Source: a virus (lineage: Duplodnaviria; Heunggongvirae; Uroviricota; Caudoviricetes). Taken from it: a DNA stretch of 64,000 nt. Positions 1 to 39,013 of the stretch are shown piece after piece; position 1 is the first letter of the stretch; each line of letters begins with the position of its first letter. The stretch lies in IMG/VR virus record IMGVR_UViG_3300006155_000234; one strand, given 5' to 3'. The position numbers and the translations under genes are program-made. The notes under the pieces were generated by a model, which saw nothing but the letters and a program-made list of their open reading frames with translations, was not told the DNA's origin and searched no databases.

Positions 1-719
1 AAGAGTTTAAAAAACCTTATGATGCTGTATATTCATCTGCAATGGTTCAGACTGTGAGAACATTATGTAGAGAATTACCAGGTTGTACATTAGGGTATTA
101 TAGTCATAATGAAATAGATTTAATATTTGTACCTATAAATGGAAATGGTACACTATCTCTGTTAAAGGGAAGTAAAACAATAAGCTATATATCAAGTGTA
201 GTTGCAAGTAAAGCTGTAAGTATATTCAACGATGCTTTGCAAGATGAAATTAAACAACAGGAATATAAAAATAAAAATAGACATTTAGAACATATATTAG
301 ATACATCTGTTTATAAACAAAAATTATTAAAATCAATATTTGAGGTAAAAGCATTTAATTTACCAAAAGAAAGACTATACGATTATATTTATTTAAAACA
401 TTTATATTCAAGAAGAGATGCACTTGTATATGCAGCATCTACATTTATAAATAAAAATGATGCAAATAGTAAGTCTTGCGAAGAACTTATAAAAATACTA
501 AAAGAACAATATAATTATGATTTTGAAAATAACAGTGTTCTTTCTGCTAGATTTAAGAATGGTATAATATGTAATAGAGTTGTAGAATCTAAAAATACAA
601 GTTGTATATTAATAGAAATAACTAAACCATTAAAGAAAAATAAAGATAGAAAGATTATTGAAAGAATGATGTTTTCAAACAATGTAGATGCTTGTGTTAA
701 ATGTCAATATGAAATATAG
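1..719 (+). CDS. Thg1-like protein (tRNA-His guanylyltransferase family, 3'-5' polymerase), 5'-partial; divergent paralog of the 38225 gene
   Basis: Reading frame is open to the window edge. Aligns segment-by-segment with ORF 38225 (KPYDAVYSSAMVQ...YSHNEIDLIF vs KPFDEILSQVMQ...TQSDEISLLL; FEVKAFNLPKERLYDY vs FDARAFNIPKEDVCNY). The SDE carboxylate motif is replaced by HNE. Confidence 0.55.
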   Translation, partial: EFKKPYDAVYSSAMVQTVRTLCRELPGCTLGYYSHNEIDLIFVPINGNGTLSLLKGSKTISYISSVVASKAVSIFNDALQDEIKQQEYKNKNRHLEHILDTSVYKQKLLKSIFEVKAFNLPKERLYDYIYLKHLYSRRDALVYAASTFINKNDANSKSCEELIKILKEQYNYDFENNSVLSARFKNGIICNRVVESKNTSCILIEITKPLKKNKDRKIIERMMFSNNVDACVKCQYEI

Positions 720-730
720 GAGGTATAGAT

Positions 731-961
731 ATGGCAGATAGGGAAGTATATGGATATACAAAATACTATACAGGAAGTTGTTTAGTAAAATTTGAAAAAT
801 CTTTTGATGATTATTATTTAACAGAAATAAAAGTACACAACGGAAGAGCAAAAATAGTGACAACTAAAAATCATGAAGAAATTATAGAAGAACATGAACT
901 AGGAATTATTGATGTAAGTCCATTAAATGTGAGTATAGGAAAATATGGAAAGGACAAATAA
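731..961 (+). CDS. hypothetical protein
   Basis: ORF with AGGAGG RBS (tagg-aggtatagat-ATG). Confidence 0.5.
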   Translation: MADREVYGYTKYYTGSCLVKFEKSFDDYYLTEIKVHNGRAKIVTTKNHEEIIEEHELGIIDVSPLNVSIGKYGKDK

Positions 962-1148
962 GATGGAAAAAGAAGATATTAAAAATGTTACATTTTATGC
1001 AAATCAACTAATAAATATTTTAGGAGATTGTCCAGAAGATGTTATAGATTATGTATTAAATGCAGTTACAGGAAATTATTATGTATCTGAAGATGAAATA
1101 GAAGAAATATTAATAAGTAATATAACAGATGAAGGAGGTGTATATTAA
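945..1148 (+). CDS. hypothetical acidic protein
   Basis: ORF overlapping the upstream stop, RBS AGGACA. Confidence 0.45.
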   Translation: MERTNKMEKEDIKNVTFYANQLINILGDCPEDVIDYVLNAVTGNYYVSEDEIEEILISNITDEGGVY

Positions 1149-1414
1149 TGGAATTTTCAAAGACAACAGAAGAAACAAAAAATTATACATCAGGATATAT
1201 GCAACTAGGAGCACAACAAGGTTGGCAATGTCCTATATGTAAGAGAGTGTTAGCACCCTTTATCACAGAATGCCCTTGTAATGGTCAAGGTATGCAAACA
1301 GTAATTACAACAAAAATTGCAGATTTATTAAAAAGACCTAATTTAACTGAAATAAATGTTAAAGATTATGAAGACACTACAATAACATATAGTCAATGTA
1401 GGGAAGGAGAATAG
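1148..1414 (+). CDS. hypothetical protein with CxxC...CPC zinc-ribbon-like motif
   Basis: ORF, RBS GAAGGAGG; CPICKRV...CPCNGQG. Confidence 0.5.
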   Translation: MEFSKTTEETKNYTSGYMQLGAQQGWQCPICKRVLAPFITECPCNGQGMQTVITTKIADLLKRPNLTEINVKDYEDTTITYSQCREGE

Positions 1415-1416
1415 AG

Positions 1417-1959
1417 ATGAAAAAGAGTTTGATAATGTTAGGCATAGCATTTGGATTATTGATACTAATTATAGGAATGTTTGCAGGTATAAATAATACT
1501 GCAATAAGTTTAAGTGAACAAATTAAAGAAAGTAAATCAAGTATTAATATACAAGAAAAGAGAAGAGAAGATTTAATTTATAATTTAGTAGATACAGTTG
1601 AAAGTTATAATAAATATGAGCAGGATACTATGACCAAAATAGTGGAAGCAAGAACAAAAGCAAGTAACGGACAAGTAGAAGAAGCACAGGTATTAATAAA
1701 TGCAGTTGCAGAAAAATATCCAGAATTAAAGTCAAATGAAAATTATAAAACATTGATGACAGAATTATCTACAACCGAAAATTTAATTGCAGAGCATAGA
1801 AATAATTATAATATTCAAGTTAAGAAATATAATAAGTATATTAAGAAATTTCCAAATAATATGATATTAAATATGATGGGGTTTGAAAAAATAGATACAG
1901 ATTATCTTGAATATGATGCATCAGAAGATGCTCCAAGAAATCTATTTAAAGATAATTAG
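1417..1959 (+). CDS. lemA: LemA family membrane protein
   Basis: N-terminal TM helix plus LemA-type body (..YNKYEQDTMTKIVEARTKA...NYNIQVKKYNKYIKKFPNNMILNMMGF). Confidence 0.7.
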   Translation: MKKSLIMLGIAFGLLILIIGMFAGINNTAISLSEQIKESKSSINIQEKRREDLIYNLVDTVESYNKYEQDTMTKIVEARTKASNGQVEEAQVLINAVAEKYPELKSNENYKTLMTELSTTENLIAEHRNNYNIQVKKYNKYIKKFPNNMILNMMGFEKIDTDYLEYDASEDAPRNLFKDN

Positions 1960-1971
1960 AGGTAATTTAAA

Positions 1972-2727
1972 ATGGAATTTAAAGTTACTAAGAGAGAAAT
2001 AATGATTACTATTGCATTAACTTTATTTTTAATTGGTATTGGATTTTTTATTGCAAGTTCAATTAGAAATAGTATAGATGAATCAAATGATAAATATTAT
2101 AAATCATTAAAGGTAGATAATGATATGGATATGTTTAGTTATGCTTTAAAAACAAATATAGGATATGTATTAGCGTCAGGAATTGTTGAGGGAATAGATG
2201 GTGTTTCCTATGATGGAATTAATGGAAAATATTTTTATATAAAGAAGGTTAAAGAAGAATATACTAAACATACAAGACAAGTAGAACATACAAGAACAGT
2301 TCCAGATGGTAATGGTGGTACTAAAACAGAAACATATTATACAACAGAAACATACTGGGAATGGGATTATGTGTCTAGTGAAATTAAACACGTAAATCAA
2401 TTTAAGTTTTTAAATTCTATATTTGATTATAATACAATTAAATTCAACAATGATAAATATATAGATACTGTAAAGGAAAGTTATTATATTAGATATAAAT
2501 ATTATGCAATACCAATATCTTTTAATGGTGTGTTGTTTACACATATAGAAAATAATACAATAGTAGATAATGAATTTTATTATAATAGTAGTATTGATGA
2601 AGTCATAAGAAATAGACAAACAAGTGTTACTGGTGCTGTAACTGGATTTTGGTTATTATGGATTATATTAATAGTATTATTAGATTTTGGATATGTGTAT
2701 TTAGAAAATAATTATTTAGAAGATTAG
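1972..2727 (+). CDS. membrane protein with N- and C-terminal TM helices (LemA-associated partner type)
   Basis: ORF directly after lemA; hydrophobic termini. Confidence 0.5.
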   Translation: MEFKVTKREIMITIALTLFLIGIGFFIASSIRNSIDESNDKYYKSLKVDNDMDMFSYALKTNIGYVLASGIVEGIDGVSYDGINGKYFYIKKVKEEYTKHTRQVEHTRTVPDGNGGTKTETYYTTETYWEWDYVSSEIKHVNQFKFLNSIFDYNTIKFNNDKYIDTVKESYYIRYKYYAIPISFNGVLFTHIENNTIVDNEFYYNSSIDEVIRNRQTSVTGAVTGFWLLWIILIVLLDFGYVYLENNYLED

Positions 2728-2737
2728 GAGGTATATT

Positions 2738-3139
2738 ATGCACTTAGGAGATATTTATAAAAGGTTGACATCAAACCATTTTGTACTGATACAGGGGTTT
2801 GCAACATACATAGATGAAGATAAAAATAAAAAAGAATTAGACGATGATATTTTAGTAGTTATAAGTAATTTAATAGTTGTAGATGGTATGCTTGTTTCTG
2901 ACCCAGTGGGTTGTCATATAGGTACTCAAAAAGAAGTAGAGGATAAATATTGTTTATACAAAAGACAGGATGAGATAAATGATATGGAATTAGAACTAAT
3001 AAGTCTAAAAGTACAACAACAAAATGAAATAGATGATAGAGAAATTGATGATATGTTTGCTAAACTAGAACCAGAAGTAATAGAAAACTTAAAAAGAGAT
3101 ATAGACGAGTTAATAAAAGAACATAAGGAGGGTAAGTAA
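2738..3139 (+). CDS. hypothetical protein
   Basis: ORF with AGGAGG RBS. Confidence 0.5.
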   Translation: MHLGDIYKRLTSNHFVLIQGFATYIDEDKNKKELDDDILVVISNLIVVDGMLVSDPVGCHIGTQKEVEDKYCLYKRQDEINDMELELISLKVQQQNEIDDREIDDMFAKLEPEVIENLKRDIDELIKEHKEGK

Positions 3140-3384
3140 TGATTATACCTAAAAGAAAAGAAACAGAAAGAGAAACTTTTGACAGATTATTCCATCTAAC
3201 TGATATGAAGGACTATGGTATGTTTCCTTCCCTAATGACAGCACAAACAGCAGTAGATGAATTATGTAGGTTCTTTTTAGGAGAAGATTGGTACACAGTC
3301 AATCCTATAAGTACAGAACAAATTAATACAGAAATTGTATATGAAATAGAAAGAAAATTAAATAGATACAGAAAGGATAGATAA
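3139..3384 (+). CDS. hypothetical protein
   Basis: ORF with RBS AAGGAGGG, overlapping stop/start. Confidence 0.5.
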   Translation: MIIPKRKETERETFDRLFHLTDMKDYGMFPSLMTAQTAVDELCRFFLGEDWYTVNPISTEQINTEIVYEIERKLNRYRKDR

Positions 3385-3385
3385 T

Positions 3386-3919
3386 ATGTCAACAACTTAT
3401 TATATGAGATTAAAAGATGATAAAGAATTAAATACTATAAGAAAAACAATAAAAGGTACTGAAAGTATAATAAATAAAGCATTAGAAATTATTGCAGAGG
3501 ATTTATATACTAAAGTTACTAATATTACTCAAAATATTATAAATGAAGATAATTTTAATAAGCAATTTTGTAATGCAGCAAGTTGGTATGGTGGTTATCC
3601 AGATGAACCTGAAGACTATCATTTAAAGAAAGTGTACCTATCAGAAATAGAAGATATTAAAATAGAAATAGGTACATATTCAGGTGGTGGTTTTCATTGG
3701 AAGTTAAATTCAGTACCAGACGGATATTATGATATTGAACAAATAAATGAAGAAAAATCTTATGATGGTTGGTTGGAATTAAAAGAGTACAGTTTCCCAA
3801 GAAGTAAAGAACAATTTAAAGAATTTATGAAAAAGTATAAAGATAAAGTTGAAATTGTAGATGAATATGGCGAGATTTATACAGTAACCAAATTTTTGAA
3901 AAAAGTAGATGAATACTAA
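3386..3919 (+). CDS. hypothetical protein
   Basis: ORF, RBS-like AAGGATAGA. Confidence 0.5.
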   Translation: MSTTYYMRLKDDKELNTIRKTIKGTESIINKALEIIAEDLYTKVTNITQNIINEDNFNKQFCNAASWYGGYPDEPEDYHLKKVYLSEIEDIKIEIGTYSGGGFHWKLNSVPDGYYDIEQINEEKSYDGWLELKEYSFPRSKEQFKEFMKKYKDKVEIVDEYGEIYTVTKFLKKVDEY

Positions 3920-3998: not shown

Positions 3999-4027
3999 TT
4001 GACATATTTTAAAACTTATAGTATTAT
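3999..4027 (+). promoter_or_regulatory. sigma-A-type promoter TTGACA-17-TATTAT (early family copy P1)
   Basis: aaaaatgcTTGACAtattttaaaacttatagTATTAT, near-identical to 10 other copies. Confidence 0.6.
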
Positions 4028-4901: not shown

Positions 4902-4905
4902 TTCT

Positions 4906-7405: not shown

Positions 7406-7434
7406 TTGACATATTTTAAAACTTGTATTATAAT
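7406..7434 (+). promoter_or_regulatory. sigma-A-type promoter TTGACA-17-TATAAT (P2)
   Basis: attgcTTGACAtattttaaaacttgtatTATAAT. Confidence 0.6.
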
Positions 7435-7465: not shown

Positions 7466-9985
7466 ATGGATGTAGGAAACGGAAAATCATTACATGAACT
7501 TATGGCTCAAATGTTAGGAAAAACACAAAAAGTAGAAGAAGATAATGTAATAGGAAAACAAGATACAGAAATAAAAATAGATAAAAATGTTAAAGATGCA
7601 AACCAAGAAGCAATAGATACTGCAAATATAATTAAATCTGCACCAACAAGAGAAGACCCAAATAAACCAGAAACAGAGAAAGATGAGGAAAATGTTGATG
7701 GAATTGCAGATGGAATATTAGTAGTAACAGACCCTGAAATAACAAGTGAGGAATTTGAAGAAGTAGCTGACGAATTACAGGGTATAGTTGATAATACAGA
7801 TGTAGGAGAATTACCATTTACAGATAAATATGAGGGAGATTATATTTTATCATGCCCTATATGTGGAGGAACATTTGTAAATGATACATTATTAGATAGT
7901 GGAGAAGATACATGCCCTATATGTTGTAAAGTACCAGATAGTTTTGTTGTGAATGGTAGAGTTGAAAATACAAATGCTGTGACAGATAAAGAAGAAGTAC
8001 AGGATAATATAGAACACGAAGAAAATCTTGAAGAACCAGAAGATATAGAAAATCAAGAAAGTTTAGAAGAACCTGAAATGGTTGAAGATGAGGAGGAAAA
8101 TCCATTGAGAAAAGAAAGTAAACAAATAGAAGGAAAGAAACTACAAGAAGATGCTTATGGTGACTATGTAGAAAATGAAAAATCATTAGCAAAAGATTAT
8201 AGTGAAAGAGTAAAGAAAAATATACCACAAGAGGCTAGAGATGCTTTCAAAGATTTAAAAGATATGTTAGATGAAGGAGATAATAAAACATTAGTTGATG
8301 GTTTCTATTTTCCAAAGAAAGCTGTTGATATTTTAAATAATTCTGATAAATCTCATCATCTAAATTCATATATGGATTTAACTATATCTAATATTTTAAA
8401 TCTAATAGAAGATAATAATACTATTGAAGAAGCAATAGATGAACTATTTAATGATTATAAAGCTGATAGTGCATTTAGTTGGGCTGATAACTTTGTTACA
8501 GTGTTAAGTAAAGTAGATACAAGTTATGTAGAAGATGATGAATTATATGAGTATGATGACGAAGAAGAATTTGAAGAAAGTAAAAAATTGACAGAAGGAG
8601 ATACCTATGATAAAGGTATATTTTATGAAATAGAACAAGCACTTGAAGATGCAGGTTTGAATCCTTCAAGATTTACAGATGATGGTGTTTTGACAAGAAA
8701 TATAGGATGGACAGTAACATCATCTGAAACAGGTGAAAGTCAACAAATAACATGTGATGGTAGTTGGTATAATGAAGAACTTGAAGAGAGTAAAAAAGTT
8801 GAAGGTGACTTATCTAAAGACTTATATGGAAATGAGGCAGACAGAAGAATAAATAATAGATTACAAAATTTAGATATTTATTTAGAAGAATTACAAGATG
8901 CAATAAAAGATAATGATGAAGATTTAATAACTGCTAATAAATCAAAAATAATGGGAAATATAGGATACTTAATACCAGCATTAAATATAAAAGGTGGTTC
9001 AAAAGGTTTAGTAGAATATATTAAAAATACTGATTTCGATTTTGAGAATAGATTTAAAGAAACAATAAATATACTAGAAGATGTGGCAGGTGAATATAGA
9101 AAAGAATATGAAGAAAATAAGAAAATAACAGAAAATTTAGAAGAACCAAATTATAAAGATATGTCAACAGAAGATTTAGATGCATATATGACAGATATAA
9201 TTAATAAAAGAGAAGGAACAGAAGATAATACAGAAGTAGCTGATTATTTAGACCAGTTATATATGGATGTTGATAATGAAATTCAGAGAAGAAAAGAAAC
9301 AGAAAGTAAAAAGATAGTTGAAGGAACAAAAGTATGGAGTTCTGAAAGTGAGTATGTTGACCAGAATGACCCTGACTTTAAAGAGTGGTTAGCGGAGTTT
9401 CATGATGTAAATGCAGAAGCACAAGAAGAAGCAGAAAATTTAGGAATAGACCCAAATAACCAAGAAGAGATGGACAATATTTATGATGGCTTAATTCAAG
9501 ACTATTTAGAAATGTACAATGAAAATGATAATGAAGCAATATCAGAAGATTGGAACGAGAATATACTACCTATGATAGAAAGACAATTAGATGATAATGA
9601 TTTAGTTATAATGTTAGGTACAGCACAAACTTGGAGAGGAACTGGTAATGCAGGAAAAGTATTAAGAGGAATGGACGATTTTAAATCATTAGTTGCAGAT
9701 TATGATATAATAGAGTTTGAAACAAGTGATGACGAAAGTCTATCAATAAATTTAATACATCATGATGGTACTCATAGAATGGCATTATATACATTTAATG
9801 GAGATGTTGAGGGAATTTATAATAAGCTAATTGAATTAGGTGTAAATGAATTTACTGGTGATGATTATGAGGACTTTGATGATGCATATTCATATTATGA
9901 TGCAGGTGACTTCATAGATTATATGTTAGATGGACATCAAGCAGAATTACAAGAATTTTTAATTCCAATAAGATGGGATATATAA
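7466..9985 (+). CDS. very large highly acidic protein with paired CPICGG/CPICC zinc-ribbon motif
   Basis: ORF behind AGGAGG RBS; the 7406 track start falls inside the promoter so the start was moved to ATG 7466. Long D/E-rich low-complexity stretches. Confidence 0.6.
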   Translation: MDVGNGKSLHELMAQMLGKTQKVEEDNVIGKQDTEIKIDKNVKDANQEAIDTANIIKSAPTREDPNKPETEKDEENVDGIADGILVVTDPEITSEEFEEVADELQGIVDNTDVGELPFTDKYEGDYILSCPICGGTFVNDTLLDSGEDTCPICCKVPDSFVVNGRVENTNAVTDKEEVQDNIEHEENLEEPEDIENQESLEEPEMVEDEEENPLRKESKQIEGKKLQEDAYGDYVENEKSLAKDYSERVKKNIPQEARDAFKDLKDMLDEGDNKTLVDGFYFPKKAVDILNNSDKSHHLNSYMDLTISNILNLIEDNNTIEEAIDELFNDYKADSAFSWADNFVTVLSKVDTSYVEDDELYEYDDEEEFEESKKLTEGDTYDKGIFYEIEQALEDAGLNPSRFTDDGVLTRNIGWTVTSSETGESQQITCDGSWYNEELEESKKVEGDLSKDLYGNEADRRINNRLQNLDIYLEELQDAIKDNDEDLITANKSKIMGNIGYLIPALNIKGGSKGLVEYIKNTDFDFENRFKETINILEDVAGEYRKEYEENKKITENLEEPNYKDMSTEDLDAYMTDIINKREGTEDNTEVADYLDQLYMDVDNEIQRRKETESKKIVEGTKVWSSESEYVDQNDPDFKEWLAEFHDVNAEAQEEAENLGIDPNNQEEMDNIYDGLIQDYLEMYNENDNEAISEDWNENILPMIERQLDDNDLVIMLGTAQTWRGTGNAGKVLRGMDDFKSLVADYDIIEFETSDDESLSINLIHHDGTHRMALYTFNGDVEGIYNKLIELGVNEFTGDDYEDFDDAYSYYDAGDFIDYMLDGHQAELQEFLIPIRWDI

Positions 9986-23246: not shown

Positions 23247-23615
23247 ATGGTTAAATTAGGTTATGCAAGAACAAGTGAAGGTGGATTTTATGGTGTAGAC
23301 TTATCAAGTGGAGAACCAATACTATTATGTTGTAATAAAAGTATATATGAAGATGTTTCAGGAGATGAGAAAGTTATTAAAGTTGTAGAAGCAGAAGATA
23401 TATGTGAAATATTACAAGTAGATGATTTTGTAAATGGTTATCCAATAGATGATATTAATGTTCAAGGTAGAATAATATATTGTGGTGATTATCAACATGA
23501 ATTTACACCAGAGCAAGTAGTAGATGTCATGACTAAAGAAAGATTTATTAGTAATAGATTTGTAGTTGCAAATGCAATAAACAGAGCGAAACAAATAGAT
23601 AGTGAAGGTTGGTAA
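23247..23615 (+). CDS. hypothetical protein
   Basis: ORF, RBS AAAGGA. Confidence 0.5.
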   Translation: MVKLGYARTSEGGFYGVDLSSGEPILLCCNKSIYEDVSGDEKVIKVVEAEDICEILQVDDFVNGYPIDDINVQGRIIYCGDYQHEFTPEQVVDVMTKERFISNRFVVANAINRAKQIDSEGW

Positions 23616-23616
23616 A

Positions 23617-24279
23617 ATGAAATTTAAGGATTTATCAAATGAAGAATTACAGAAAGATTTTAAGAAATTATTAAGTAGATATACACCAGATGAATTAGTG
23701 AAATCATTAGAGCCATATAAAATAGAAACAGATGAAAAATATAAGTTTATACTATATTTAGATATGGATGGTGTAACTGCAGGTAGTAATTATATAATAA
23801 AAATCCATAATGCTTTAGTTCATAAAGAAGATGAAAATAAAGATTTTGAATATAGAAATTTTATGCAACAATGGTGTTTTCAAAAGGAAGCAGTTGAATT
23901 TTTAAATAAGTTATATGATGTTGCACCATATACAATTATATTAACAACTACAAGAAGATATGAATTGACACCAACAGAATGGAATACAGTTTTTAAGATA
24001 AATAAAGTTAAAGCCTATATAGGTGGTAGGACTAATAGAATACCAAAAGAAAATTATATATCTTGGAGAGAAGATGAAATAGAAGATTATCATTTTAAAG
24101 GAAGTGGAATGTTTACATTTAAAAATATACCTTTTCTAATTATAGATGATGATATATTTGATTTATATAAGTATGGAGATAATTTAATACATGTAGATAC
24201 AGAAACAGGTTTAACTATGGATTATTTTCAAGAGGCATTAGATAAATTAAAAGCACAAGATGTTAAAATAAATATATAG
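23617..24279 (+). CDS. HAD-superfamily hydrolase (5'(3')-nucleotidase/phosphatase-like)
   Basis: HAD motif I LYLDMDGVT, motif II IILTTTR, motif IV FLIIDDD. Confidence 0.5.
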   Translation: MKFKDLSNEELQKDFKKLLSRYTPDELVKSLEPYKIETDEKYKFILYLDMDGVTAGSNYIIKIHNALVHKEDENKDFEYRNFMQQWCFQKEAVEFLNKLYDVAPYTIILTTTRRYELTPTEWNTVFKINKVKAYIGGRTNRIPKENYISWREDEIEDYHFKGSGMFTFKNIPFLIIDDDIFDLYKYGDNLIHVDTETGLTMDYFQEALDKLKAQDVKINI

Positions 24280-25196: not shown

Positions 25197-26741
25197 ATGG
25201 CAGATATAGATAAACAAAGAAAAAATAATATATTTAAAGGTATAAAGTACCATGTAAATGAATTAAAAAGATTGAGACCACAATATGAGTTTTTAATGGT
25301 AGCCTTACAAGGAAGTCAAAATTATAATTTAGATTTATATACAGATGAGTATAAATCTGATATAGATACAGTAGCTATTGTATTACCTACCTTTGAAAAC
25401 TTAATAAATAAGGATGAATATATATCTGAAACAATAATATTAGATAATAATGAACATATAGATGTTAAAGATATTAGGTTAATAACAGAATTATTTAGAA
25501 AACAAAATATAAAATATCTTGAAATATTACATACAGAATTTAGAATATTAAACCCATTATTTAAAAATGATATGTTAGAAATATTAGATAATGCTGATAT
25601 GATTTCTAGTGCAAATCCAGTAAAATTAATAGTTTGTACTTATGGTATGGCTTTAAATAAATTAGAAGCATTAGAACATCCTTATGAAGGGTTGAGAGAT
25701 AAGATAGAAAAATATGGATATGATGGAAAACAATTACATCATATACTAAGATTAAATTTATTTGCAGAAAAATATATAGAAACATTTGATTTTAAAAAAT
25801 CTATGAATTCCCATAATTATATGGAAGATAATATTGAAGTTTTAACTAATGCTAAATTAAGCAAATATTCATTAGAAGAAGCAAGAGATTTGGCAAATGA
25901 TAGTATAAATCAATTAAAGTCACATAGAAATATGTTTTTTAATGAAGTAAATAGTGAAGACATGGTTAAAGAATTTTTAAGTAAAATCTCTGTTAAAATA
26001 TTTGAAAAATATTTAAGAAATATTTTTACACCAAAAAGAAATAAATGGAGAAGAAAAAGCGGTCTATCGTTACCAACCTCAGATAAAATATTTTTTACAT
26101 CTGACTTACATTTTGGACATGAAAATATATTAGACTTTGAACCAAAAAGATGGGAGTTATGTGGAATAACCCAACATCAAGCAATAGTAAATAAATTAAA
26201 AGATGAAGGTTTGACAAATGAAGAAATTTATAATATACCAGATGACCTTTGGGATAAATATAAAATGGAGGTTAATAAGGAATATATAAAAATTCATGAT
26301 GAAGAACTTATAAGAAGATGGAATAGTACAGTAAAACATGATGATGATTTAGTGTTCATATTAGGTGATTTATCATTTAGAAATAGTAAAGAAACTAATG
26401 AAATTGTTAAGAGATTACGAGGTAGAAAGATACTTATATTAGGAAATCATGATAATATATGTATTGGAAAAGATTTTGACCAGTCTTTATTTGAGGAGAT
26501 AGTTGATTATAAAGAAATAACAGTCAATAATAAGAAATACATATTATTTCATTTTCCAATATCTTCATGGAAACAAAAAGAATATGGTAGCACTCATCTA
26601 TATGGGCATATTCATAGCAATAGCCATATTATAAAAAAGATTAAAAATTCATATAATGTTGGTGTAGATGTTAATAATTTTAAGCCAGTATGTTTAAGTG
26701 AATATGAGGCATTTAGTAGAATTTATAAAAAAATTAAATAA
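25197..26741 (+). CDS. fusion protein: N-terminal Pol-beta-superfamily nucleotidyltransferase + C-terminal calcineurin-like metallophosphoesterase
   Basis: N-terminal GSQNYNLDLYTDEYKSDIDTVAIV (GS...[DE]hDh NTase signature); C-terminal FFTSDLHFGHENI, FILGDLSF, ILGNHD, GHIHS. Confidence 0.6.
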   Translation: MADIDKQRKNNIFKGIKYHVNELKRLRPQYEFLMVALQGSQNYNLDLYTDEYKSDIDTVAIVLPTFENLINKDEYISETIILDNNEHIDVKDIRLITELFRKQNIKYLEILHTEFRILNPLFKNDMLEILDNADMISSANPVKLIVCTYGMALNKLEALEHPYEGLRDKIEKYGYDGKQLHHILRLNLFAEKYIETFDFKKSMNSHNYMEDNIEVLTNAKLSKYSLEEARDLANDSINQLKSHRNMFFNEVNSEDMVKEFLSKISVKIFEKYLRNIFTPKRNKWRRKSGLSLPTSDKIFFTSDLHFGHENILDFEPKRWELCGITQHQAIVNKLKDEGLTNEEIYNIPDDLWDKYKMEVNKEYIKIHDEELIRRWNSTVKHDDDLVFILGDLSFRNSKETNEIVKRLRGRKILILGNHDNICIGKDFDQSLFEEIVDYKEITVNNKKYILFHFPISSWKQKEYGSTHLYGHIHSNSHIIKKIKNSYNVGVDVNNFKPVCLSEYEAFSRIYKKIK

Positions 26742-27306: not shown

Positions 27307-27399
27307 GGTAAGGTGGGTGAGTAGGTTTAAACCATCTCTCTGCTAAGGAGACATACATTTAATTATGTATCGAGGGTTCGAATCCCTCCCTTATCGCCA
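27307..27399 (+). tRNA. tRNA-Ser (anticodon GCT), long variable arm, CCA encoded
   Basis: Acceptor ggtaagg/ccttatc (one G-U); anticodon stem tctct/ggaga, loop ctGCTaa; variable-arm hairpin atacat/atgtat; T arm gaggg-ttcgaat-ccctc. Confidence 0.65.
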
Positions 27400-27574
27400 T
27401 AAAGATGTTATATATTATGTATAAGTAATATATAATCTATTTCATAGGGTTCTCAAAGGTGAACAAAATAGAGCATGAGATGAAATAGATTAATCATAGT
27501 TTAGTCTATGAAAAATAAATAATGCTCGATGTGTGGTTGATGATATACCTTAAATCATTTGTATATATATATAT

Positions 27575-27657
27575 CGAGTATGGTGTATGGTGCACGGCAT
27601 CCAACAGGTGGATGATGGAATTGGTTTGAATCCAATGTACTCGACCAGCCTTTAATT
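27575..27657 (+). tRNA. tRNA-like gene (type uncertain; candidate anticodon loop aaCAGgt)
   Basis: Acceptor cgagtat/gtactcg, discriminator a, CCA; T arm attgg-tttgaat-ccaat. The D region is irregular. Confidence 0.35.
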
Positions 27658-27680
27658 AGGTAATGCTAATAATTTAATAC

Positions 27681-27756
27681 TGCGAGGTGGAGAAGTTGGC
27701 ATCTCACTAGCCTCATAAGCTAGAGTTCGCTGGTTCGAATCCAGCCCTCGCACCCA
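27681..27756 (+). tRNA. tRNA-Met/Ile2 type (anticodon CAT), CCA encoded
   Basis: Acceptor tgcgagg/cctcgca; anticodon stem ctagc/gctag, loop ctCATaa; T arm gctgg-ttcgaat-ccagc. Confidence 0.75.
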
Positions 27757-27761
27757 ATATA

Positions 27762-27836
27762 GCAGGGTGGTGTAATATAGCATAGCTGAGCCCATATTTC
27801 GGACGATGTTGGTTCAAATCCAACCCCTGCGACCAA
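27762..27836 (+). tRNA. tRNA-like gene, possibly degenerate (anticodon arm not foldable by eye)
   Basis: T arm gttgg-ttcaaat-ccaac, then 3' acceptor ccctgcg, a, CCA pairing with 5' (a)gcaggg. Confidence 0.3.
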
Positions 27837-27996
27837 ATAACACCTGCTGCATGTATGAAAATATATGTATAGGAGAAAGTGGTTCGAATCCATAACAGGT
27901 GATATGCAAAAATAAAGTAGGTTAATATAGTATCTCGCATTAGATATAAAATTTATATTTGACGTCAATATAATTTACTCCTACTTTACATTATAC

Positions 27997-28067
27997 CCTT
28001 TGATAGTTTAGTGGGAAAATCCCCTGTATGCGACAGGGAGTCAATGGTTCGAATCCATTTCAAAGGC
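27997..28067 (+). tRNA. tRNA (anticodon probably TGC; identity uncertain), no encoded CCA
   Basis: Acceptor cctttga/tcaaagg; D stem gttt/aaat; anticodon stem ccctg/caggg, loop taTGCga; T arm aatgg-ttcgaat-ccatt. Confidence 0.55.
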
Positions 28068-28155
28068 AAGTCTAAAATATATAGGCAGAATTCACTATAT
28101 AGAGATTAGGCAAAAAGATGCTGAGAGCTGCAGAAATCAAGCATCTTTTTAATAT

Positions 28156-28227
28156 AGTCATTTAGTTTAGTAGGAAAAATTACTTTACTAATGTAAGGAG
28201 AGGTTGGTTCGAATCCAACAATGGCTG
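28156..28227 (+). tRNA. tRNA-like gene (anticodon uncertain)
   Basis: Acceptor agtcatt/aatggct (one U-G); D stem gttt/aaat; T arm gttgg-ttcgaat-ccaac. Anticodon stem imperfect. Confidence 0.4.
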
Positions 28228-28250
28228 TAAATAAAAATAGGGCATAGTGG

Positions 28251-28342
28251 CAGAGTTTGGTTTAATGCACCAGTCTTGAAAACTGGCAATCCAGAAATGG
28301 GTTCCTAGGTTCAAATCCTAGCTATGTCGCCATAACAGGTTC
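28251..28342 (+). tRNA. tRNA-Ser (anticodon TGA), long variable arm, CCA encoded
   Basis: Acceptor ggcatag/ctatgtc; anticodon stem ccagt/actgg, loop ctTGAaa; T arm ctagg-ttcaaat-cctag. Confidence 0.7.
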
Positions 28343-30533: not shown

Positions 30534-30546
30534 GGTGAAATATTAT

Positions 30547-31428
30547 ATGAAAAAGTATCATTTTGTTTATATCACAAGAAGGATTGGAACACCTTATTAT
30601 TACTATGGTGTTCATAGTACAAATAACATAAATGATGGTTATATTGGTTCTGGGTATCATTTTTTAAATGCAGTTAGAAAGTATGGGAAAGAAAGTTTTA
30701 GTAGAGAAATCATAAAATTTTTTGAAAGTCATGATGAAGCTTTGAAATTTGAAAATGAAATCATAACCAAAGAAGTTCTAGAAGATGAATATTGTTATAA
30801 TATTCAACATGGTGGAAAAGGTTCAAAAGATGAACATACTCTATCAACAAAAGAAAAAATGTCTTTAAGTGCAAAAGAAAGAAAAATACCACAAGAAACA
30901 AGAAATAAGTTAAAAGAATCTATGAAAAGAAAAATAGAGTTATATGGATATTATCACAGTGAAGAAACCAGAAAAAGAATATCAGAAACATTGAAGAGTA
31001 AAGATATGGGTAAGTATAATAAAGGAAGAATACAAACAGAAAGTGAAAGAAATAAAAGAAGTATATCTTTAAAATTGGCATACAAGGAGGGAAGGCATAA
31101 AAAATCTGATTTATCAGGAGATAAAAATCCGATGTATGGTAAACATTTTACAGATAGTATGAAACAAAATTTATCAAATGCACAGAAAGAAAGATTTAGT
31201 AATGTACTGGAAAGAGAAAAAACATCTATATCTACTAAAAATGGCATGATAAAATCAGAAAAGTGGAATACATATAAAGCAGAGCTTAAATCTGGTATTA
31301 GAGATGGTTCTATGAAAGGTAAATCTAATCCAAATTTTGGTAAGAGTATGAAATTGGCTATGCACATAAGACATCATATAAAAAAAGGAATATTTAATAA
31401 GGAGTGTGACTATTGTGTTATTCGGTGA
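30547..31428 (+). CDS. GIY-YIG homing endonuclease with NUMOD3 repeats (free-standing HEG)
   Basis: YHFVYITRRIGTPYYYYGVHS...YIGSG...FENEII is the GIY-YIG core; repeated NUMOD3-like units (NPMYGKHFTDSMK, NPNFGKSMK). Start moved to ATG 30547. Confidence 0.75.
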   Translation: MKKYHFVYITRRIGTPYYYYGVHSTNNINDGYIGSGYHFLNAVRKYGKESFSREIIKFFESHDEALKFENEIITKEVLEDEYCYNIQHGGKGSKDEHTLSTKEKMSLSAKERKIPQETRNKLKESMKRKIELYGYYHSEETRKRISETLKSKDMGKYNKGRIQTESERNKRSISLKLAYKEGRHKKSDLSGDKNPMYGKHFTDSMKQNLSNAQKERFSNVLEREKTSISTKNGMIKSEKWNTYKAELKSGIRDGSMKGKSNPNFGKSMKLAMHIRHHIKKGIFNKECDYCVIR

Positions 31429-33395
31429 TTATGAAAAAGAAGAAATTGAAAAATTAGAAAGAATTATAAAGGAACAGTCTGAGAAGTATTATACAGATGG
31501 TACACAAACATTGACAGATGTAGAGTTTGATAATTTGGTTGATAGACTAAGATTATTAAATCCTACTTCTAAAATATTGCAAGTTCCTCGGATGGGGTTA
31601 CAAACAAACAGGGCATAAAGTAAAACATAAGTATCAATTAGTAAAAAGTCTTGATAAATGTAGAACTTATGATGAAGTTCCTGAAAGATTTAAAAATGGG
31701 TTTGTATCTTTATCTCCTAAACTAGATGGTTTAACTGGTGTATTTTATTATGAAGGTGGTAAATTGATTAAAGCAGTTACAAGAGGTAATGGTCAAGAGG
31801 GAAAAGATATTACAGATAAGGCGAGAATAATTGTAGGTAATGAAATAGAAGATAAGAATTTTACAGGTGGTGTAAGAGGAGAATTAGAAATATCTGTTGA
31901 AAACTGGGAAAAGGTTAAATATAAATATCCCGAAGCTAAAAATGCAAGAAATTTATGTGCTGGTTGGATAAACTCTAAAGATTATTCAATAGATGATATA
32001 AAATTAATTGATTTTATAACTTATAAAATAACAGGACAAGAAAGGGATATGAATAATATTGTTACAGATAGTGTATGTAGTAGAAGAAATCCAGCCAAAG
32101 AAGACATTAAAGATTGGTTGAAGTGGAATTTTAAGAATGTTATTGAAACTGTTACCACTATATTAGATAGAAAAGATAAATTTGAAGAATATATGAAAGA
32201 TACATTTGAAAGTTTTAAATATACGATGGGATACGAATTAGATGGTGTTGTAATCTCAAATACAGAAGTTATATATCATGAAGATGCAAAATCATATATT
32301 TATGATGAGTGTGCTTTTAAATTTGCAGCAGAAGAAAAAGAAACTACAATAAATAATATTAAATGGGAATTATCAAGAACACAAAGATATATACCAGTAT
32401 TAGAAATTGAGCCAATAGAATTGTCTGGTGCAGTAGTGCATAATGTAACTGGAAATAATGCTCAATATTTATTAGATAATGGTTTAGGTGTTGGTGCTAC
32501 AATTTCTGTATGCAGAAGTGGTGAGGTTATTCCAAAGCACATGGACACATTAGAAGCAGCAGATGTAGATTTACCAGAAAAATGCTCAATATGTGGACAT
32601 ACTTTAATTTGGGATGGTGTAGATTTAAAATGTGCATTTAAAGATTGTCCAAATATAGAATATAGTGATTTAAGACAATGGTGTGAAACAATAGGCGAAA
32701 CAGATGGTATGGCTTGGACACTTATGGAACAATATTTAGTAAAATTTAGAATCATGAGTATATCAGATTTATATTGTTTAGAAACTAAAGAAAAAATTGA
32801 TAGCTGGGCTTACTTATCTAATTTAAGTATAACAGATAGAAAGGCTGTAGAATTTTTTGGAAAACTATATAATAATAAGGTAGATGTAGAAAAAGCTTTA
32901 ATTGCTTTAAATATCCCAAGATTAGGTGATAAAACTGCAAAAGATTTAGCAAAAGAAACAAATACAGTAAAGCAGCTAATAAATGATATAAAAGGTTTAG
33001 GATATATAGATAATATTCTAAGTGACAAGTTATTAAAAATTGTCAAAGAAGCTACAACTAAATCTATAATAGAAAATCAAACAACTAAATTAAAAAATAT
33101 ATTATATATAGGAAATAGAATAAAGTATAAAGAAGTATCTAATAAAGAAATAATTAAAGTTGCTGTAACAGGTGCATTAAATACAATGAAAAGAAGTGCA
33201 TTTGAAAAGTATATTGAAAGTTATGGATATGAACTATCAAGTGCTATAAAGTCTTGTAAGTATTTAATAACAAATACTCCAGATAGTGGTTCAAGCAAAA
33301 ATAAAGATGCCCAAAAATATGGTGTTGAAATAATTACAGAACAAGCATTTTTAGATTTAATAGGTGGAAATACTAAAAATAATAGTTTATTTTAA
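31406..33395 (+). CDS. ligA: NAD-dependent DNA ligase (LigA), reading frame broken by a 1-nt frame change at about 31594-31618
   Basis: Frame +2 (31406-31618) encodes the Ia domain (YYTDGTQTLTDVEFDNLVDRLRLL). Frame +0 continues from 31602 with the KxDG adenylation motif (SPKLDGLTG), TRGNGQEGKDIT, a Cys4 zinc finger (CSICGH..CAFKDC), HhH and BRCT domains. The two frames abut at a GGGG run. Confidence 0.7.
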
Positions 33396-33433: not shown

Positions 33434-33462
33434 GTAAAAACCCTTGACAAATTTTAAAACTT
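33434..33462 (+). promoter_or_regulatory. sigma-A-type promoter TTGACA-17-TAATAT (P7) with UP-like box
   Basis: tttagtaaaaacccTTGACAaattttaaaacttatagTAATAT. Confidence 0.55.
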
Positions 33463-33502
33463 ATAGTAATATAATTACAGATATTAAAAAGGAGGTGTAT
33501 CT

Positions 33503-36420: not shown

Positions 36421-37227
36421 ATGGAAAACAGAAAGACAATTAAATGGATTGTATTAGGTATAATTTTAATAGTTGCAGTAATAGTATTATTTAATTCATT
36501 TAAAACAATTCCAACAGGATGTGTTGGTGTAAAGACCCAATTTGGGAAAGTACAGAACGATGTATTACAAGAAGGACTAAATGGTAAAATACCATTTATA
36601 GAAAAAATTGTATTAGTAGATTGCAAAACAAAGAAAATAGATGCTACATCTGAAAGTAGCACCAAAGATTTACAAACAGTATCAGTAACAATAGCATTAA
36701 ATTATAATGTAAGAAAAGACACAGCAAATAAATTATATAGAGAGGTTGGTACAGACTTTGAAAATATAGTTATAAATCCTGCTATATTAGAGAGTGTTAA
36801 GAGTGTAATGGCACAATATACAGCAGAAGAGTTAATAACAAAAAGAGCAGAAGTATCTTCAATGATTAGAGAATCATTAACAAATAAAATAGATAGTAGA
36901 GGAATTACTATAACAGAATTTAATACAACAAATATAGATTTTAGTGATGCTTTTAACGCAGCAATAGAAGCAAAAGCAGTTAAACAACAAGAGGTAGTAA
37001 CTGCACAAGCAGAATTAGAAAAACAAAAAATTCAAAATGAAAAGGAAATAAGTATTGCAGAAAAAGATGCAAAAGTAATGGAACTACAAAATAATCAAAT
37101 AACAGATAAGACATTACAATTAAAAGAATTAGAAATTAAACAAAAAATGATTGAAAAATGGAATGGACAATTCCCTACTACTATGATGGGTGAGAATACT
37201 TCAGCTTTATTCAATATAAGTAAATAG
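36421..37227 (+). CDS. SPFH/band-7 (stomatin-prohibitin-like) membrane protein
   Basis: N-terminal TM followed by an SPFH body (PTGCVGVKTQFGKV...VSVTIALNYNV...AEVSSMIRESL). Confidence 0.65.
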   Translation: MENRKTIKWIVLGIILIVAVIVLFNSFKTIPTGCVGVKTQFGKVQNDVLQEGLNGKIPFIEKIVLVDCKTKKIDATSESSTKDLQTVSVTIALNYNVRKDTANKLYREVGTDFENIVINPAILESVKSVMAQYTAEELITKRAEVSSMIRESLTNKIDSRGITITEFNTTNIDFSDAFNAAIEAKAVKQQEVVTAQAELEKQKIQNEKEISIAEKDAKVMELQNNQITDKTLQLKELEIKQKMIEKWNGQFPTTMMGENTSALFNISK

Positions 37228-37238
37228 AGGTGATATAA

Positions 37239-38042
37239 ATGGCAAAAGTTAGTTTTAAAGATATAGAACATGTTCTACCAGATAATATGATGTGGTTGGA
37301 AGACAGAACAATATTATTAACTAAAGCAGGTTCAGTTATATATGGAACAAATGTAGAAACATCTGATACTGATTATAAGGGTGTATGTATTCCACCAAAA
37401 GAATATTATTTAGGATTAAAATCTATAAATGAATATAATAAGTCTGGTGGTAAAAATTTTGGAGAACATAATACAAAAGAAGATATTGATATAGTAATAT
37501 GCCATATAAATAAATTTGTTAGAGACGCTATGCAAGGTGTACCAAATAATATTGATATACTATTTTGTAGAGATGAAGATATAATTCATATAGATGATTT
37601 TGGAAAAGAGTTAAGAAGTATAAGAAAAGAATTTTTATCTAAGGAAATATATAAAAAGTTTTGTGGATTTGCAATGTCACAAAGGTATAAACTAGATATA
37701 AAGAAGCAAAATGGAACTGGCAGACAAGATTTAGTTGAAAAATTTGGTTATGATACTAAATTTGCTTATCATGCTATAAGATTACTATATTGTGCAAAAC
37801 AAATATTATTAACACATGATTATTGTTCTTACAGACCAGAAGAAGAGAGAAAATTATTATTAGATATAAGAGCAGGAAAATATACATTAGAAGAAATATT
37901 TGATATGTTTGACAGATTAGATAAAGAGATACACCAATACTATGATGAAAGTACATTACAAAAGACACCAGATTATCATAAAATAAATAAATGGTTGATA
38001 GATATAAATGAGAAAGCTTTAAATTATGATTTTACAATATAG
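37239..38042 (+). CDS. Pol-beta-superfamily nucleotidyltransferase
   Basis: GSVIYGTNVETSDTDYKGVCI matches the GS-x(9-13)-DxD NTase signature; helical C-terminal domain. Confidence 0.55.
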   Translation: MAKVSFKDIEHVLPDNMMWLEDRTILLTKAGSVIYGTNVETSDTDYKGVCIPPKEYYLGLKSINEYNKSGGKNFGEHNTKEDIDIVICHINKFVRDAMQGVPNNIDILFCRDEDIIHIDDFGKELRSIRKEFLSKEIYKKFCGFAMSQRYKLDIKKQNGTGRQDLVEKFGYDTKFAYHAIRLLYCAKQILLTHDYCSYRPEEERKLLLDIRAGKYTLEEIFDMFDRLDKEIHQYYDESTLQKTPDYHKINKWLIDINEKALNYDFTI

Positions 38043-38080
38043 TTCTTCTTTATCAGGTTTCCCTAGAAACTATTTTAGAT

Positions 38081-38133
38081 AGACAGTTGATATAAGTTTA
38101 TAAGTATAAATTTCAACTGTCTTAAATTTTTTA
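38081..38133 (+). terminator. hairpin terminator candidate
   Basis: 10-bp stem agacagttga/tcaactgtct, then taaatttttt. Confidence 0.45.
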
Positions 38134-38152
38134 ATAAATTTTGAAAAAACCC

Positions 38153-38181
38153 TTGACATATTTTAAAACTTATAGTATAAT
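38153..38181 (+). promoter_or_regulatory. sigma-A-type promoter TTGACA-17-TATAAT (P8) with UP-like box
   Basis: ttttgaaaaaacccTTGACAtattttaaaacttatagTATAAT. Confidence 0.6.
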
Positions 38182-38224
38182 ATAGGTATAATAAGTAAAT
38201 AATAGTTTTAAGGAGGAGTATATA

Positions 38225-39013
38225 ATGTCAAATTCAAAGATAAAAACATTAAGTGATAGAATGAAAGATTATGAATCTGTATCAGATGTTAAACTTACAA
38301 AAAGAACACCTGTTATAGTAAGAATAGATGGTAAAGCATTCCACACATTTACAAGAGGTTTAGATAAACCATTTGATGAAATACTATCACAAGTAATGCA
38401 ATATGTTTGTGAAAATCTTATATTGAGTGTTCAAGGGTGCAAGTTAGCATATACACAGTCTGATGAGATAAGTTTATTATTAACAGACTGGGATAAATTA
38501 ACTACTGATAGTTATTTTGATTATAGATTACAAAAGGTATGTTCAGTAATAGCATCAGCAGCAACAATGTATTTTAATAAGTTTGTAACACAAAAGGTAT
38601 TAGCTTGGTCTGGTTATGCAAATTCAGATGAACCAGAGAATTTAGACTTATTTAATAAATGGCAAAAGAAAATGGGTATAGCAATGTTTGATGCAAGAGC
38701 ATTTAATATACCAAAGGAAGATGTATGTAATTACTTTTTATGGAGGCAACAAGATGCATCAAGAAACTCAATACAATCACTAGGACAATCAAAGTTTAGT
38801 CAAAAACAACTTGATAAGAAAAATACAAGTGATATACAAGATATGTTAATGGAAAAGTACAATATAAATTGGAATAATTTAGAAACTAAATGGAAAAGAG
38901 GATTTTGTGTATATAGAAAAGATGAGGGAATATTCTGTGATACAGAAATACCATTATTTAATAAAGATAGAGATTTTATAGATAAATTTTTATTAGTACC
39001 AGAAGAAGAGTAG
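38225..39013 (+). CDS. Thg1 family tRNA-His guanylyltransferase-like 3'-5' nucleotidyltransferase
   Basis: PVIVRIDGKAFHTFTRG (Thg1 RxDGxxFxxFT motif) and QSDEISLLL (catalytic carboxylates); a KDYESV.. start typical of the family. Confidence 0.75.
   Translation: MSNSKIKTLSDRMKDYESVSDVKLTKRTPVIVRIDGKAFHTFTRGLDKPFDEILSQVMQYVCENLILSVQGCKLAYTQSDEISLLLTDWDKLTTDSYFDYRLQKVCSVIASAATMYFNKFVTQKVLAWSGYANSDEPENLDLFNKWQKKMGIAMFDARAFNIPKEDVCNYFLWRQQDASRNSIQSLGQSKFSQKQLDKKNTSDIQDMLMEKYNINWNNLETKWKRGFCVYRKDEGIFCDTEIPLFNKDRDFIDKFLLVPEEE

Follow-up and report, generated by a model that had tools for sequence, protein, structure and literature searches.

A canonical Thg1-like protein in an RNA-repair gene block of a large uncultivated tailed phage, and a degenerate, probably non-catalytic paralog in a separate operon

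Thg1-like proteins (TLPs) are, to our knowledge, the only known 3'-5' polymerases, and the natural role of those encoded by bacteria and phages is still unsettled. The locus considered here raises the question of why a phage should carry two members of this family, one of them with its catalytic residues substituted. Both lie in a window of 64,000 nt (the whole stretch of DNA analysed, AT-rich with a GC content of 27%) from IMG/VR record IMGVR_UViG_3300006155_000234, a tailed phage of the Caudoviricetes; we refer to the canonical, bacterial-type protein as TLP-B and to its degenerate paralog as TLP-A (Table 1). The answer that we favour, and regard on balance as probable from the sequences, is that TLP-B would be an active enzyme of acceptor-stem repair and TLP-A a non-catalytic protein that would bind RNA 5' ends or acceptor stems without metal. 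TLP-A is thus probably a new, non-catalytic variant of the Thg1 family, and not a new kind of system.

The initial annotation had recognised TLP-B as a member of the Thg1 family from two motifs, VIVRIDGKAFHTF and QSDEISLL; both are present and the assignment is secure. TLP-B matches Pfam Thg1 (PF04446) with E 3e-31 and 108.5 bits against a cut-off of 29.2, over profile positions 2-130 of 130, with a further, sub-threshold match to Thg1C; it matches PHROG 4717 (7.9e-83), can be aligned over its full length with the Bacillus thuringiensis TLP (BtTLP) 4KGK (phmmer, E 1.2e-61), and finds the Thg1 proteins of Candida (5e-13), yeast and human more weakly. HINNLYN, the anticodon-recognition motif of eukaryotic Thg1, is lacking, the stretch ASRNSIQS aligning to the 'chinnlyn' of Candida, so that TLP-B is of the TLP subtype. 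We mapped the positions of MaTLP onto both paralogs and the TLP-A clade in a residue table, in which TLP-B retains R19, D21, G22, K36, S68, D69, E70, R83, K86, R114, R136 and N137 without exception; its metal carboxylates are D35, D80 and E81 (MaTLP D21, D69 and E70; human D29, D76 and E77) and its NTP (nucleoside triphosphate)-binding residues R33, R101, K104 and R158 (MaTLP R19, R83, K86 and R114). It lacks, in short, none of the residues to which catalysis, NTP binding or acceptor-end binding is assigned in the archaeal MaTLP (5AXK-5AXN), and we infer that it is an active 3'-5' polymerase. Its isoelectric point (pI) is 6.0, and its orthologs show a ratio of non-synonymous to synonymous substitution (dN/dS) of 0.30-0.34.

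TLP-A is a more distant relative. Its frame runs uninterrupted through 238 codons, with the N-terminal 44 amino acids (aa) outside the window, and the fragment scores E 3.7e-8 and 33.8 bits against Pfam Thg1, above the 29.2-bit cut-off; in BLASTP it is 25% identical to TLP-B across 222 aligned residues (E 4e-18). The initial annotation was therefore right to see a Thg1-family paralog in this 5'-truncated open reading frame (ORF), and right also that its HNE is homologous to the catalytic SDE, with the Asp replaced and the Glu kept: YSHNEIDLI aligns with TQSDEISLL of TLP-B, ungapped across the motif, in BLASTP, and HMMER gives the same register against 4KGK. A full-length TLP-A of 282 aa, P0001, is 99% identical to the fragment, carries a precomputed PF04446 assignment and matches PHROG 4717 (4.5e-21) over residues 8-268; of 717 bases compared, 4 are different between its contigs, L003 and L010, and the window. 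At its N-terminus P0001 has PYIVRVKQQEFKEF where TLP-B has PVIVRIDGKAFHTF, the catalytic motif VRIDGKAFHTF having become VRVKQQEFKEF (IDG to VKQ), which means that the first catalytic Asp and the Gly that follows it have been replaced in TLP-A as well. Besides HNE for SDE, it has FEVK for FDAR and LKHLY for WRQQD.

These substitutions are shared across a clade of seven sequences, all from phage-like metagenomic contigs. At the metal carboxylates TLP-A has K35 (for D21), N80 (for D69) and a retained E81, and every full-length member follows the pattern K/R/T, N, E. In MaTLP numbering the clade has exchanged D21 for K/R/T, G22 for Q/L and D69 for an invariant Asn, and has lost S68; among the NTP ligands only R19 is kept, R83 having become T/P, K86 Y/V and R114 K/N/S. 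In an alignment of the 150 best representatives FDxR and WRQxD are gone from every member of the clade, and about 140 of the remaining representatives keep all four motifs (D, SDE, FDxR and WRQxD). What the clade has kept is R19, K36-P-x-D39, E70, a basic residue at position 188, and a basic character throughout (pI 8.3-9.3).

The structure of MaTLP with tRNA and GDPNP indicates what has been given up: D21, D69 and the carbonyl of G22 coordinate a pair of Mg ions, the catalytic subunit grips the triphosphate of the incoming NTP with R19 and R114, the partner subunit contributes R83 and K86 to it in trans, R136 and N137 touch G2, C72 and the 5' phosphate, and a beta-hairpin of the partner subunit binds the tRNA elbow (Kimura et al. 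2016, PMC4820378). TLP-A, lacking the equivalents of D21, G22, D69, R83, K86 and R114, falls outside the catalytic definition of the family in two respects, the three metal carboxylates and the ligands of the NTP triphosphate. Replacement of the D76-equivalent by Ala leaves ScThg1, BtTLP, MxTLP and DdiTLP4 completely inactive (PMC11404450), and mutation of D29 or D76 severely impairs human Thg1 (PMC4820378). Since that single exchange suffices to abolish activity, TLP-A, with its several losses, is very unlikely to polymerise in the 3'-5' direction. The initial annotation had taken TLP-A for a variant in one residue, possibly of altered specificity, and this description has to be abandoned, because what is missing clade-wide is two metal carboxylates out of three, the glycine of the DG pair, and the basic NTP-holding residues. 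An enzyme of altered chemistry or specificity, working by one-metal catalysis, by adenylylation only or on a different nucleotidyl acceptor, could find encouragement in the invariant N-E at the D-E position, K-P-x-D and R19, which suggest a pocket under selection, and in the purifying selection described below; with S68 and three of four triphosphate ligands lost as well, and given the inactive and impaired mutants, we consider it highly improbable, and a non-catalytic TLP-A much more likely.

Loss of catalytic motifs might equally mark a functionless, decaying duplicate, or an artefact of a low-complexity, AT-rich ORF, and the patchy distribution of TLP-A and the very small number of its homologs would fit such a view. 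We find it scarcely credible. The ORFs are intact at 281-282 aa in at least six diverged lineages and hold a fixed syntenic position; three orthologs that are 64-70% identical give a pairwise Nei-Gojobori dN/dS of 0.19-0.27, and residues are invariant across the clade. From an alignment of 42 sequences AlphaFold2 gives a confident model (mean predicted local distance difference test 90.7, predicted template-modelling (TM) score 0.90) with the Thg1 fold: all 32 of the Foldseek matches in the PDB at E<=1e-3 are Thg1 or TLP structures, the best being BtTLP 4kgm (E 8e-15, target-normalised TM 0.83). By this model and these substitution rates, TLP-A is a folded, maintained protein under purifying selection, not a wreck. 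The Thg1 palm is akin to those of GGDEF and Cas10 proteins (PMC12657218); a role for TLP-A as a nucleotide sponge was considered and set aside, the fold and the neighbouring Tad8 gene being its sole support.

The clade is rare and confined to phages. A search with the TLP-A fragment among 5.8 billion proteins returned four relatives only, and an exhaustive HMMER comparison with 1.84 billion cluster representatives gave P0002 and P0004-P0007 at E<=1e-53, no more than these five at E<=1e-30, and then ordinary TLPs at about 1e-28. A pattern-based scan of 185,579 bacterial and archaeal species genomes, which distant copies may escape, gave no match. In IMG/VR it occurs on a single 9-kb contig; P0007 is carried by a 222-kb NCBI contig (CAPVUW010000005.1), and among phage records the TLP-A type retrieved one unannotated 4-kb 'Bacteriophage sp.' entry, in which the match is its canonical TLP. 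The sample names of the relatives do not overlap and their contigs are short; TLP-A and TLP-B were seen together in the genome of the window. A 948-aa neighbour protein has 2 homologs only. Seven other, unrelated representatives of the family lack the first Asp or SDE (P0008, P0012, P0024, P0049, P0072, P0127 and P0136), with such combinations as ITGKSF/ADE, IKGKAF/ADE and VGMVSF/RNE, and degenerate TLPs may thus have arisen several times; the surroundings of P0008 (contig L057) showed nothing on pairing with a canonical TLP.

TLP-A stands in an operon of consistent composition. On the contigs of P0001, P0002, P0003, P0005 and P0007 the order is a LysM gene, an SNF2 helicase, one to four small ORFs, TLP-A, further small ORFs, LemA, two proteins without Pfam matches, in some cases Tad8, a 177-aa protein, an amidase/holin lysis cassette and the large terminase; synteny of the operon was seen in contigs L001, L003, L017, L020 and L023. 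The Tad8 homolog, related to an inhibitor of type II Thoeris, is present in L001, L017 and L023 and absent from L020 and L045. In the window the operon ends before the promoter copy at 3999, one of eight copies of a 29-bp element, TTGACATATTTTAAAACTTATAGTATAAT, which occur within 64 kb, all on the + strand and with at most 3 mismatches, where none would be expected. The copy in front of TLP-B agrees with the sigma-70 consensus at 12 of 12 positions (TTGACA, a 17-nt spacer and TATAAT), and a further copy precedes the Pnkp-like gene described below; the mechanical ORF starts at 7406 and 42225 are the TTG of the element. Contig L010, 99% identical to the window, has copies at 2642-2670 and 9239-9267; one copy there, with 1 mismatch, lies after a terminator and before LysM, at the head of the TLP-A operon. 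TLP-A, TLP-B and the Pnkp-like gene thus share, as far as sequence tells, a promoter class with perfect host-type hexamers, which suggests, without proving, that they are expressed simultaneously; conservation of the spacer in addition to the hexamers suggests a class specific to the phage.

TLP-A is also the fast-evolving gene of an otherwise conserved operon, since its counterparts in syntenic genomes are only 39-41% identical to P0001, compared with 69% for SNF2, 78-88% for LemA and 91% for the terminase. In a 213.7-kb IMG/VR relative (IMGVR_UViG_3300045988_082442), SNF2 and TLP-B are 66% and 68% identical to those of the window and lie 42 kb apart as in this phage, and TLP-B, RlaP and Pnkp are all kept, yet there is no TLP-A, no 133-aa protein and no Tad8 between SNF2 and LemA; in relatives further removed, whose SNF2 is 47-49% identical, no TLP lies closer to this gene than 10 kb. 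Together with the null result in cellular genomes, this makes TLP-A a phage-restricted accessory on which TLP-B does not depend. The rapid divergence of TLP-A, its presence in some genomes and absence from others, and its co-transcription with a Tad8 homolog would suit an arms-race gene. A more pointed proposal is that the 3'-5' polymerase family has in TLP-A its first natural member without catalysis, a counter-defence decoy or clamp: the disarmed Thg1 pocket, with Lys/Arg in place of the metal ligand, would grip tRNA 5' ends, acceptor stems or fragments without metal, shielding tRNAs of phage or host from a host nuclease, sequestering a damage signal, or poisoning a host Thg1-family or tRNA-directed factor. 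We offer this tentatively, as a possibility with the odds against it.

A different use for an inactive paralog would be as the non-catalytic subunit of a hetero-oligomer with TLP-B, to which it would lend tRNA binding or specificity. ADAT3/Tad3, Trm6 and Trm82 are pseudoenzyme partners of tRNA-modifying enzymes that are kept for RNA binding, as obligate and co-evolving subunits; TLP-A resembles them in its substituted catalytic residues, and ADAT3-ADAT2 and Trm6-Trm61 are the models to which such a pair would be compared. Both paralogs occur in one genome, behind the same promoter class, and TLP-A keeps the fold, with a predicted beta-hairpin at residues 232-249. Thg1 and TLPs are dimers of dimers in which one subunit takes the acceptor end and the chemistry and the other the tRNA elbow (PMC4820378). 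However, because TLP-A has T/P and Y/V for the trans-donated R83 and K86, a heterodimer would weaken the active site of TLP-B; the two genes belong to different operons 38 kb from each other, TLP-A has changed far more rapidly than the genes beside it, and, unlike an obligate partner, it is dispensable in the close relative that has TLP-B, RlaP and Pnkp. Canonical TLPs occur in 162 phage records, annotated 'tRNA-His guanylyltransferase' and 30-49% identical to TLP-B, and none of these has a second, divergent TLP such as this phage has. Xanthomonas phage XacN1 is the only one with two matching places, and since one match lies at 62.3 kb and terminal repeats of 66 kb have been reported for this phage, we read the second as a repeat copy. 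The hetero-oligomer is, on this evidence, unlikely.

The surroundings of TLP-B are of another kind. Immediately upstream is an RlaP-family nucleotidyltransferase, and downstream follow a P-loop NTPase, a Pnkp-like trifunctional RNA repair enzyme and a YqeY-like protein, an order kept in contigs L027 and L011, where TLP-B is 68-74% identical. The RlaP family adds 1-2 nt to the 3' ends of damaged RNAs (preprint, PMC12776372). The Pnkp-like protein combines a kinase (AAA_33, 1.4e-22), a Metallophos domain (1e-15) and a ligase of the Rnl1 type (RNA_lig_T4_1, 9.4e-33), and matches PHROG 8238 (1.2e-201); its PDB matches are 4gp7/4jst (query residues 3-138), 4j6o (171-286), T4 polynucleotide kinase (1ly1/1ltq) and the tRNA ligase 9qw7, of which we take 4gp7/4jst to be the kinase and 4j6o the phosphatase domain of Clostridium thermocellum Pnkp. 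The RlaP and Pnkp-like genes are 4.2 kb apart and their linkage is kept in L027, as befits a module; phage tRNAs beside the repair genes, with 8-9 tRNA or tRNA-like genes in the window, are a second mark of one. Modules of RlaP with RNA ligase and end-healing enzymes were described by Burroughs & Aravind (2016), insofar as they are cited in PMC7824862, and where Thg1 accompanies RlaP, RNA ligases and tRNAs in large phages, the set has been interpreted before as a means of mending tRNAs that the host has damaged (Iyer et al. 2021, PMC7824862). TLP-B is accordingly a known sort of phage gene in a known sort of RNA-repair module, and ordinary for large phages. In an unrelated 409.5-kb jumbo phage (L028, IMGVR_UViG_3300028048_000038), the region 10001-11497 encodes a TLP 48% identical to TLP-B, and what follows it directly resembles RlaP weakly, at 29% identity over 129 residues; should this match be real, the adjacency of RlaP and TLP would recur beyond this lineage.

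Our favoured reading can now be put in full. TLP-B would refill missing 5'-strand nucleotides of tRNA acceptor stems with the 3' strand as template, alongside RlaP, which would act on 3' ends, and the Pnkp-like enzyme, which would heal and seal them, and the whole kit would be the answer of the phage to host attacks on tRNA. TLP-A would have kept the Thg1 fold and lost the two-metal centre and the clamp for the incoming NTP; carrying Lys or Arg where a metal ligand had been, and retaining residues that touch the RNA 5' end, it is proposed to bind that end or the acceptor stem without metal. Its production would coincide with that of the repair enzymes, although its operon is another, accessory one that includes an anti-defence gene, and it would shield, sequester or hand over RNA ends instead of extending them. 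The initial annotation had suggested tRNA 5'-end maintenance for both proteins; this fits TLP-B, given its RlaP, tRNA-Cys/Trp and Pnkp-like neighbours, whereas TLP-A stands outside the tRNA neighbourhood, in the operon of SNF2, LemA and Tad8.

Several points weigh against this reading. RNA binding, although the most likely function of TLP-A, is argued only from retained residues, charge and modelled fold, and of the residues in question R136 is kept in six of seven clade members, being Ser in the most divergent (P0007), and N137 is variable. The Asn of TLP-A could still ligate a metal and its Glu is kept, so that a residual or different activity is formally possible. The promoter class is common to the genes concerned, and this suggests a predicted co-expression only. 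In the literature we found, of which coverage was incomplete, there is neither biochemistry of a phage TLP nor a naturally inactive member of the Thg1 family, and the physiological substrate of bacterial TLPs has not been established, according to PMC5041481.

What follows from the locus depends on how TLP-A is understood. That RlaP, TLP-B and the Pnkp-like gene are conserved together and commonly promoted speaks for a rebuilding of both strands at damaged tRNA ends in the course of infection, and these genes form a defined set from which tRNA-end repair could be reconstituted. If TLP-A is indeed selected and disarmed, the Thg1 scaffold would have been turned to a new use, in binding, in the manner of a pseudokinase, and would offer a ready-made substrate trap; if it is an anti-defence factor, it would point to a way, so far undescribed, in which hosts attack the 5' ends or acceptor stems of tRNAs; and if it is merely a dispensable accessory, what is left is a routine phage TLP annotation and a curiosity.

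Table 1. Coordinates of the features discussed, numbered from the first base of the window
Feature	Position	Strand	Remarks
TLP-A	3..719	+ (frame 3)	C-terminal 238 aa of 282-aa degenerate Thg1-like paralog; cut by window edge
TLP-A operon, remainder	731..3919	+	small ORFs, LemA, 251-aa and 133-aa proteins, Tad8, 177-aa protein
LemA	1417-1959	+	downstream of TLP-A; Pfam LemA 9.5e-35
Tad8 homolog (type II Thoeris inhibitor)	3139-3384	+	81 aa; Pfam PF25189 2.1e-16
Promoter copies	3999-4027, 7406-7434, 17836-17864, 19419-19447, 28515-28543, 33444-33472, 38153-38181, 42225-42253	+	29-bp element
HAD_SAK_2 protein ('Swiss Army Knife' RNA repair HAD domain)	23602..24279	+	upstream of tRNA cluster; Pfam PF18143 E 8.9e-15
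514-aa nucleotidyltransferase-phosphoesterase fusion	25197..26741	+	RlaP-like N-terminus; directly upstream of tRNA cluster
Main tRNA cluster	27307..28332	+	six to seven tRNA or tRNA-like genes; ARAGORN, Rfam
tRNA-Ser(GCU)	27307-27399		
Doubtful 'Leu(CAG)'	27575-27647		ARAGORN only; without long variable arm; no Rfam match
tRNA-Met(CAU)	27681-27756		
CAU tRNA	27761-27832		directly after tRNA-Met(CAU); Rfam only, 33.9 bits; C33 instead of U33; A1.G72 mismatch
'Ala(UGC)'-like	27997-28067		A33; C1-G72 pair; no G3:U70
tRNA-like	28155-28228		U.U closing anticodon stem or 9-nt loop; no amino acid from ARAGORN
tRNA-Ser(UGA)	28241-28332		
RlaP-family Pol-beta nucleotidyltransferase	37239..38042	+	immediately upstream of TLP-B; Pfam RlaP 1.7e-17, PHROG 388 2.7e-65
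TLP-B promoter	38153..38181	+	12/12 to sigma-70 consensus; 44 nt before ATG; AAGGAGG ribosome-binding site at 38210-38216
TLP-B	38225..39013	+	262 aa; canonical bacterial-type TLP; Pfam, 4KGK, PHROG, residue table
tRNA-Cys(GCA)	39038-39113	+	starts 25 nt after TLP-B stop codon
tRNA-Trp(CCA)	39123-39197	+	ARAGORN, Rfam
Sigma-70 region-4 protein, phage sigma-like factor	39233..40129	+	Pfam Sigma70_r4 9.2e-13; gene call in L004
P-loop NTPase	41353..41985	+	between TLP-B and Pnkp-like gene; Pfam NPHP3_N/AAA; kept in L011, L027
Pnkp-like gene promoter	42225..42253	+	2 mismatches to 29-mer
Pnkp-like trifunctional RNA repair enzyme	42282..44738	+	818 aa; gene start from L004
YqeY/GatB-C-like protein	46545..46997	+	Pfam YqeY 1.1e-38; kept in L011, L027

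Of the tRNA genes of the window, the pair for Cys and Trp begins 25 nt past the stop codon of TLP-B, in line with the initial annotation, which had put TLP-B immediately upstream of it, has fully paired acceptor stems and an encoded CCA, and is probably co-transcribed with TLP-B, no promoter or terminator having been found between them. The statement that the two TLP genes flank a tRNA-rich region holds only loosely and makes too much of the link for TLP-A: the main cluster lies 9.9 kb from TLP-B and 26.6 kb from TLP-A, which has no tRNA within 26 kb. Neither ARAGORN nor Rfam finds a tRNA-His in the window, in agreement with the initial annotation, which had seen none in the array. In amoebozoan mitochondria, tRNAs with mismatched acceptor 5' ends are edited, but as a general explanation here a need of the phage tRNAs for 5' editing was rejected, a 1:72 mismatch being confined to one low-scoring CAU tRNA and the others being fully paired. 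Bacterial initiator tRNAs have a C1xA72 mismatch and three G-C pairs in the anticodon stem; this CAU tRNA recalls the mismatch but lacks the three pairs; a TLP might take it as substrate, or it could be a pseudo-tRNA. The three odd tRNA-like genes of the cluster are doubtful as decoders. Upstream of the cluster, the 514-aa fusion matches PHROG 388 at residues 28-140 (1.5e-8), the phosphoesterase PHROG 547 at 291-504 (1.7e-44) and PDB 1xm7 (2.5e-8).

Among known systems, BtTLP (4KGK/4KGM) and MaTLP are the closest to TLP-B, which differs in being phage-encoded and set within an RlaP/Pnkp repair block, and BtTLP shares its fold with TLP-A. Phage genes akin to TLP-B include orf143 of Bacillus phage Bc431v3, gp378 of Bacillus phage G, and those of XacN1 and the Lak phages; a pattern-based scan of bacterial and archaeal species genomes, with the limit already given, found no close relatives of TLP-B. 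Dictyostelium discoideum likewise has several Thg1-family paralogs per genome with divided labour, four 3'-5' RNA polymerases of distinct biological functions according to PMC5041481, whereas here one paralog has lost its catalytic centre. The 818-aa phage protein has the order of kinase, metallophosphoesterase and ligase found in C. thermocellum Pnkp, but its ligase domain matches the Pfam family of T4 Rnl1. Bacterial Pnkp of this type pairs with Hen1 in RNA repair; among the ORFs scanned, which were part of those in the window, no Hen1 methyltransferase was found.

The source is a large, uncultivated tailed phage of at least 159 kb with an RNA-repair tool kit. Genes for a large terminase, a tail-sheath stabiliser, a holin and an endolysin bear out the phage origin given at the outset, and identical copies of TLP-B are found on contigs of 159 kb (Ga0080706_1000016) and 0.2-1 Mb. 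None of 50,697 phage records contains DNA nearly identical to the window, and the nearest isolates to its large terminase are at most 34% identical. An 851-aa protein (58777..61332) combines a type I dockerin (Pfam 1.1e-5) with a Peptidase_G2 intramolecular-chaperone domain, typical of tail fibres and spikes, and such a dockerin-bearing tail protein hints that the host is a clostridial producer of cellulosomes, such as a Ruminococcus-like organism of the rumen or gut.

Two further observations concern neighbouring genes. An SPFH/Band-7 protein (36421-37227) lies directly upstream of RlaP; it and LemA belong to membrane-associated families whose role in phages is unclear, and both are kept in relatives. 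The gene for an NAD-dependent DNA ligase (31406-33395), a single 669-aa protein in the relative L026, is split near 31590-31597, with the N-terminal Ia domain in one frame (31430-31597) and the remainder in another (31590-33392), directly downstream of a GIY-YIG homing endonuclease (30535-31428). The split is probably no sequencing error, because the same two ORFs are called in the independent assemblies L004 and L005; it could reflect disruption of the gene or a frameshift, perhaps a programmed one.

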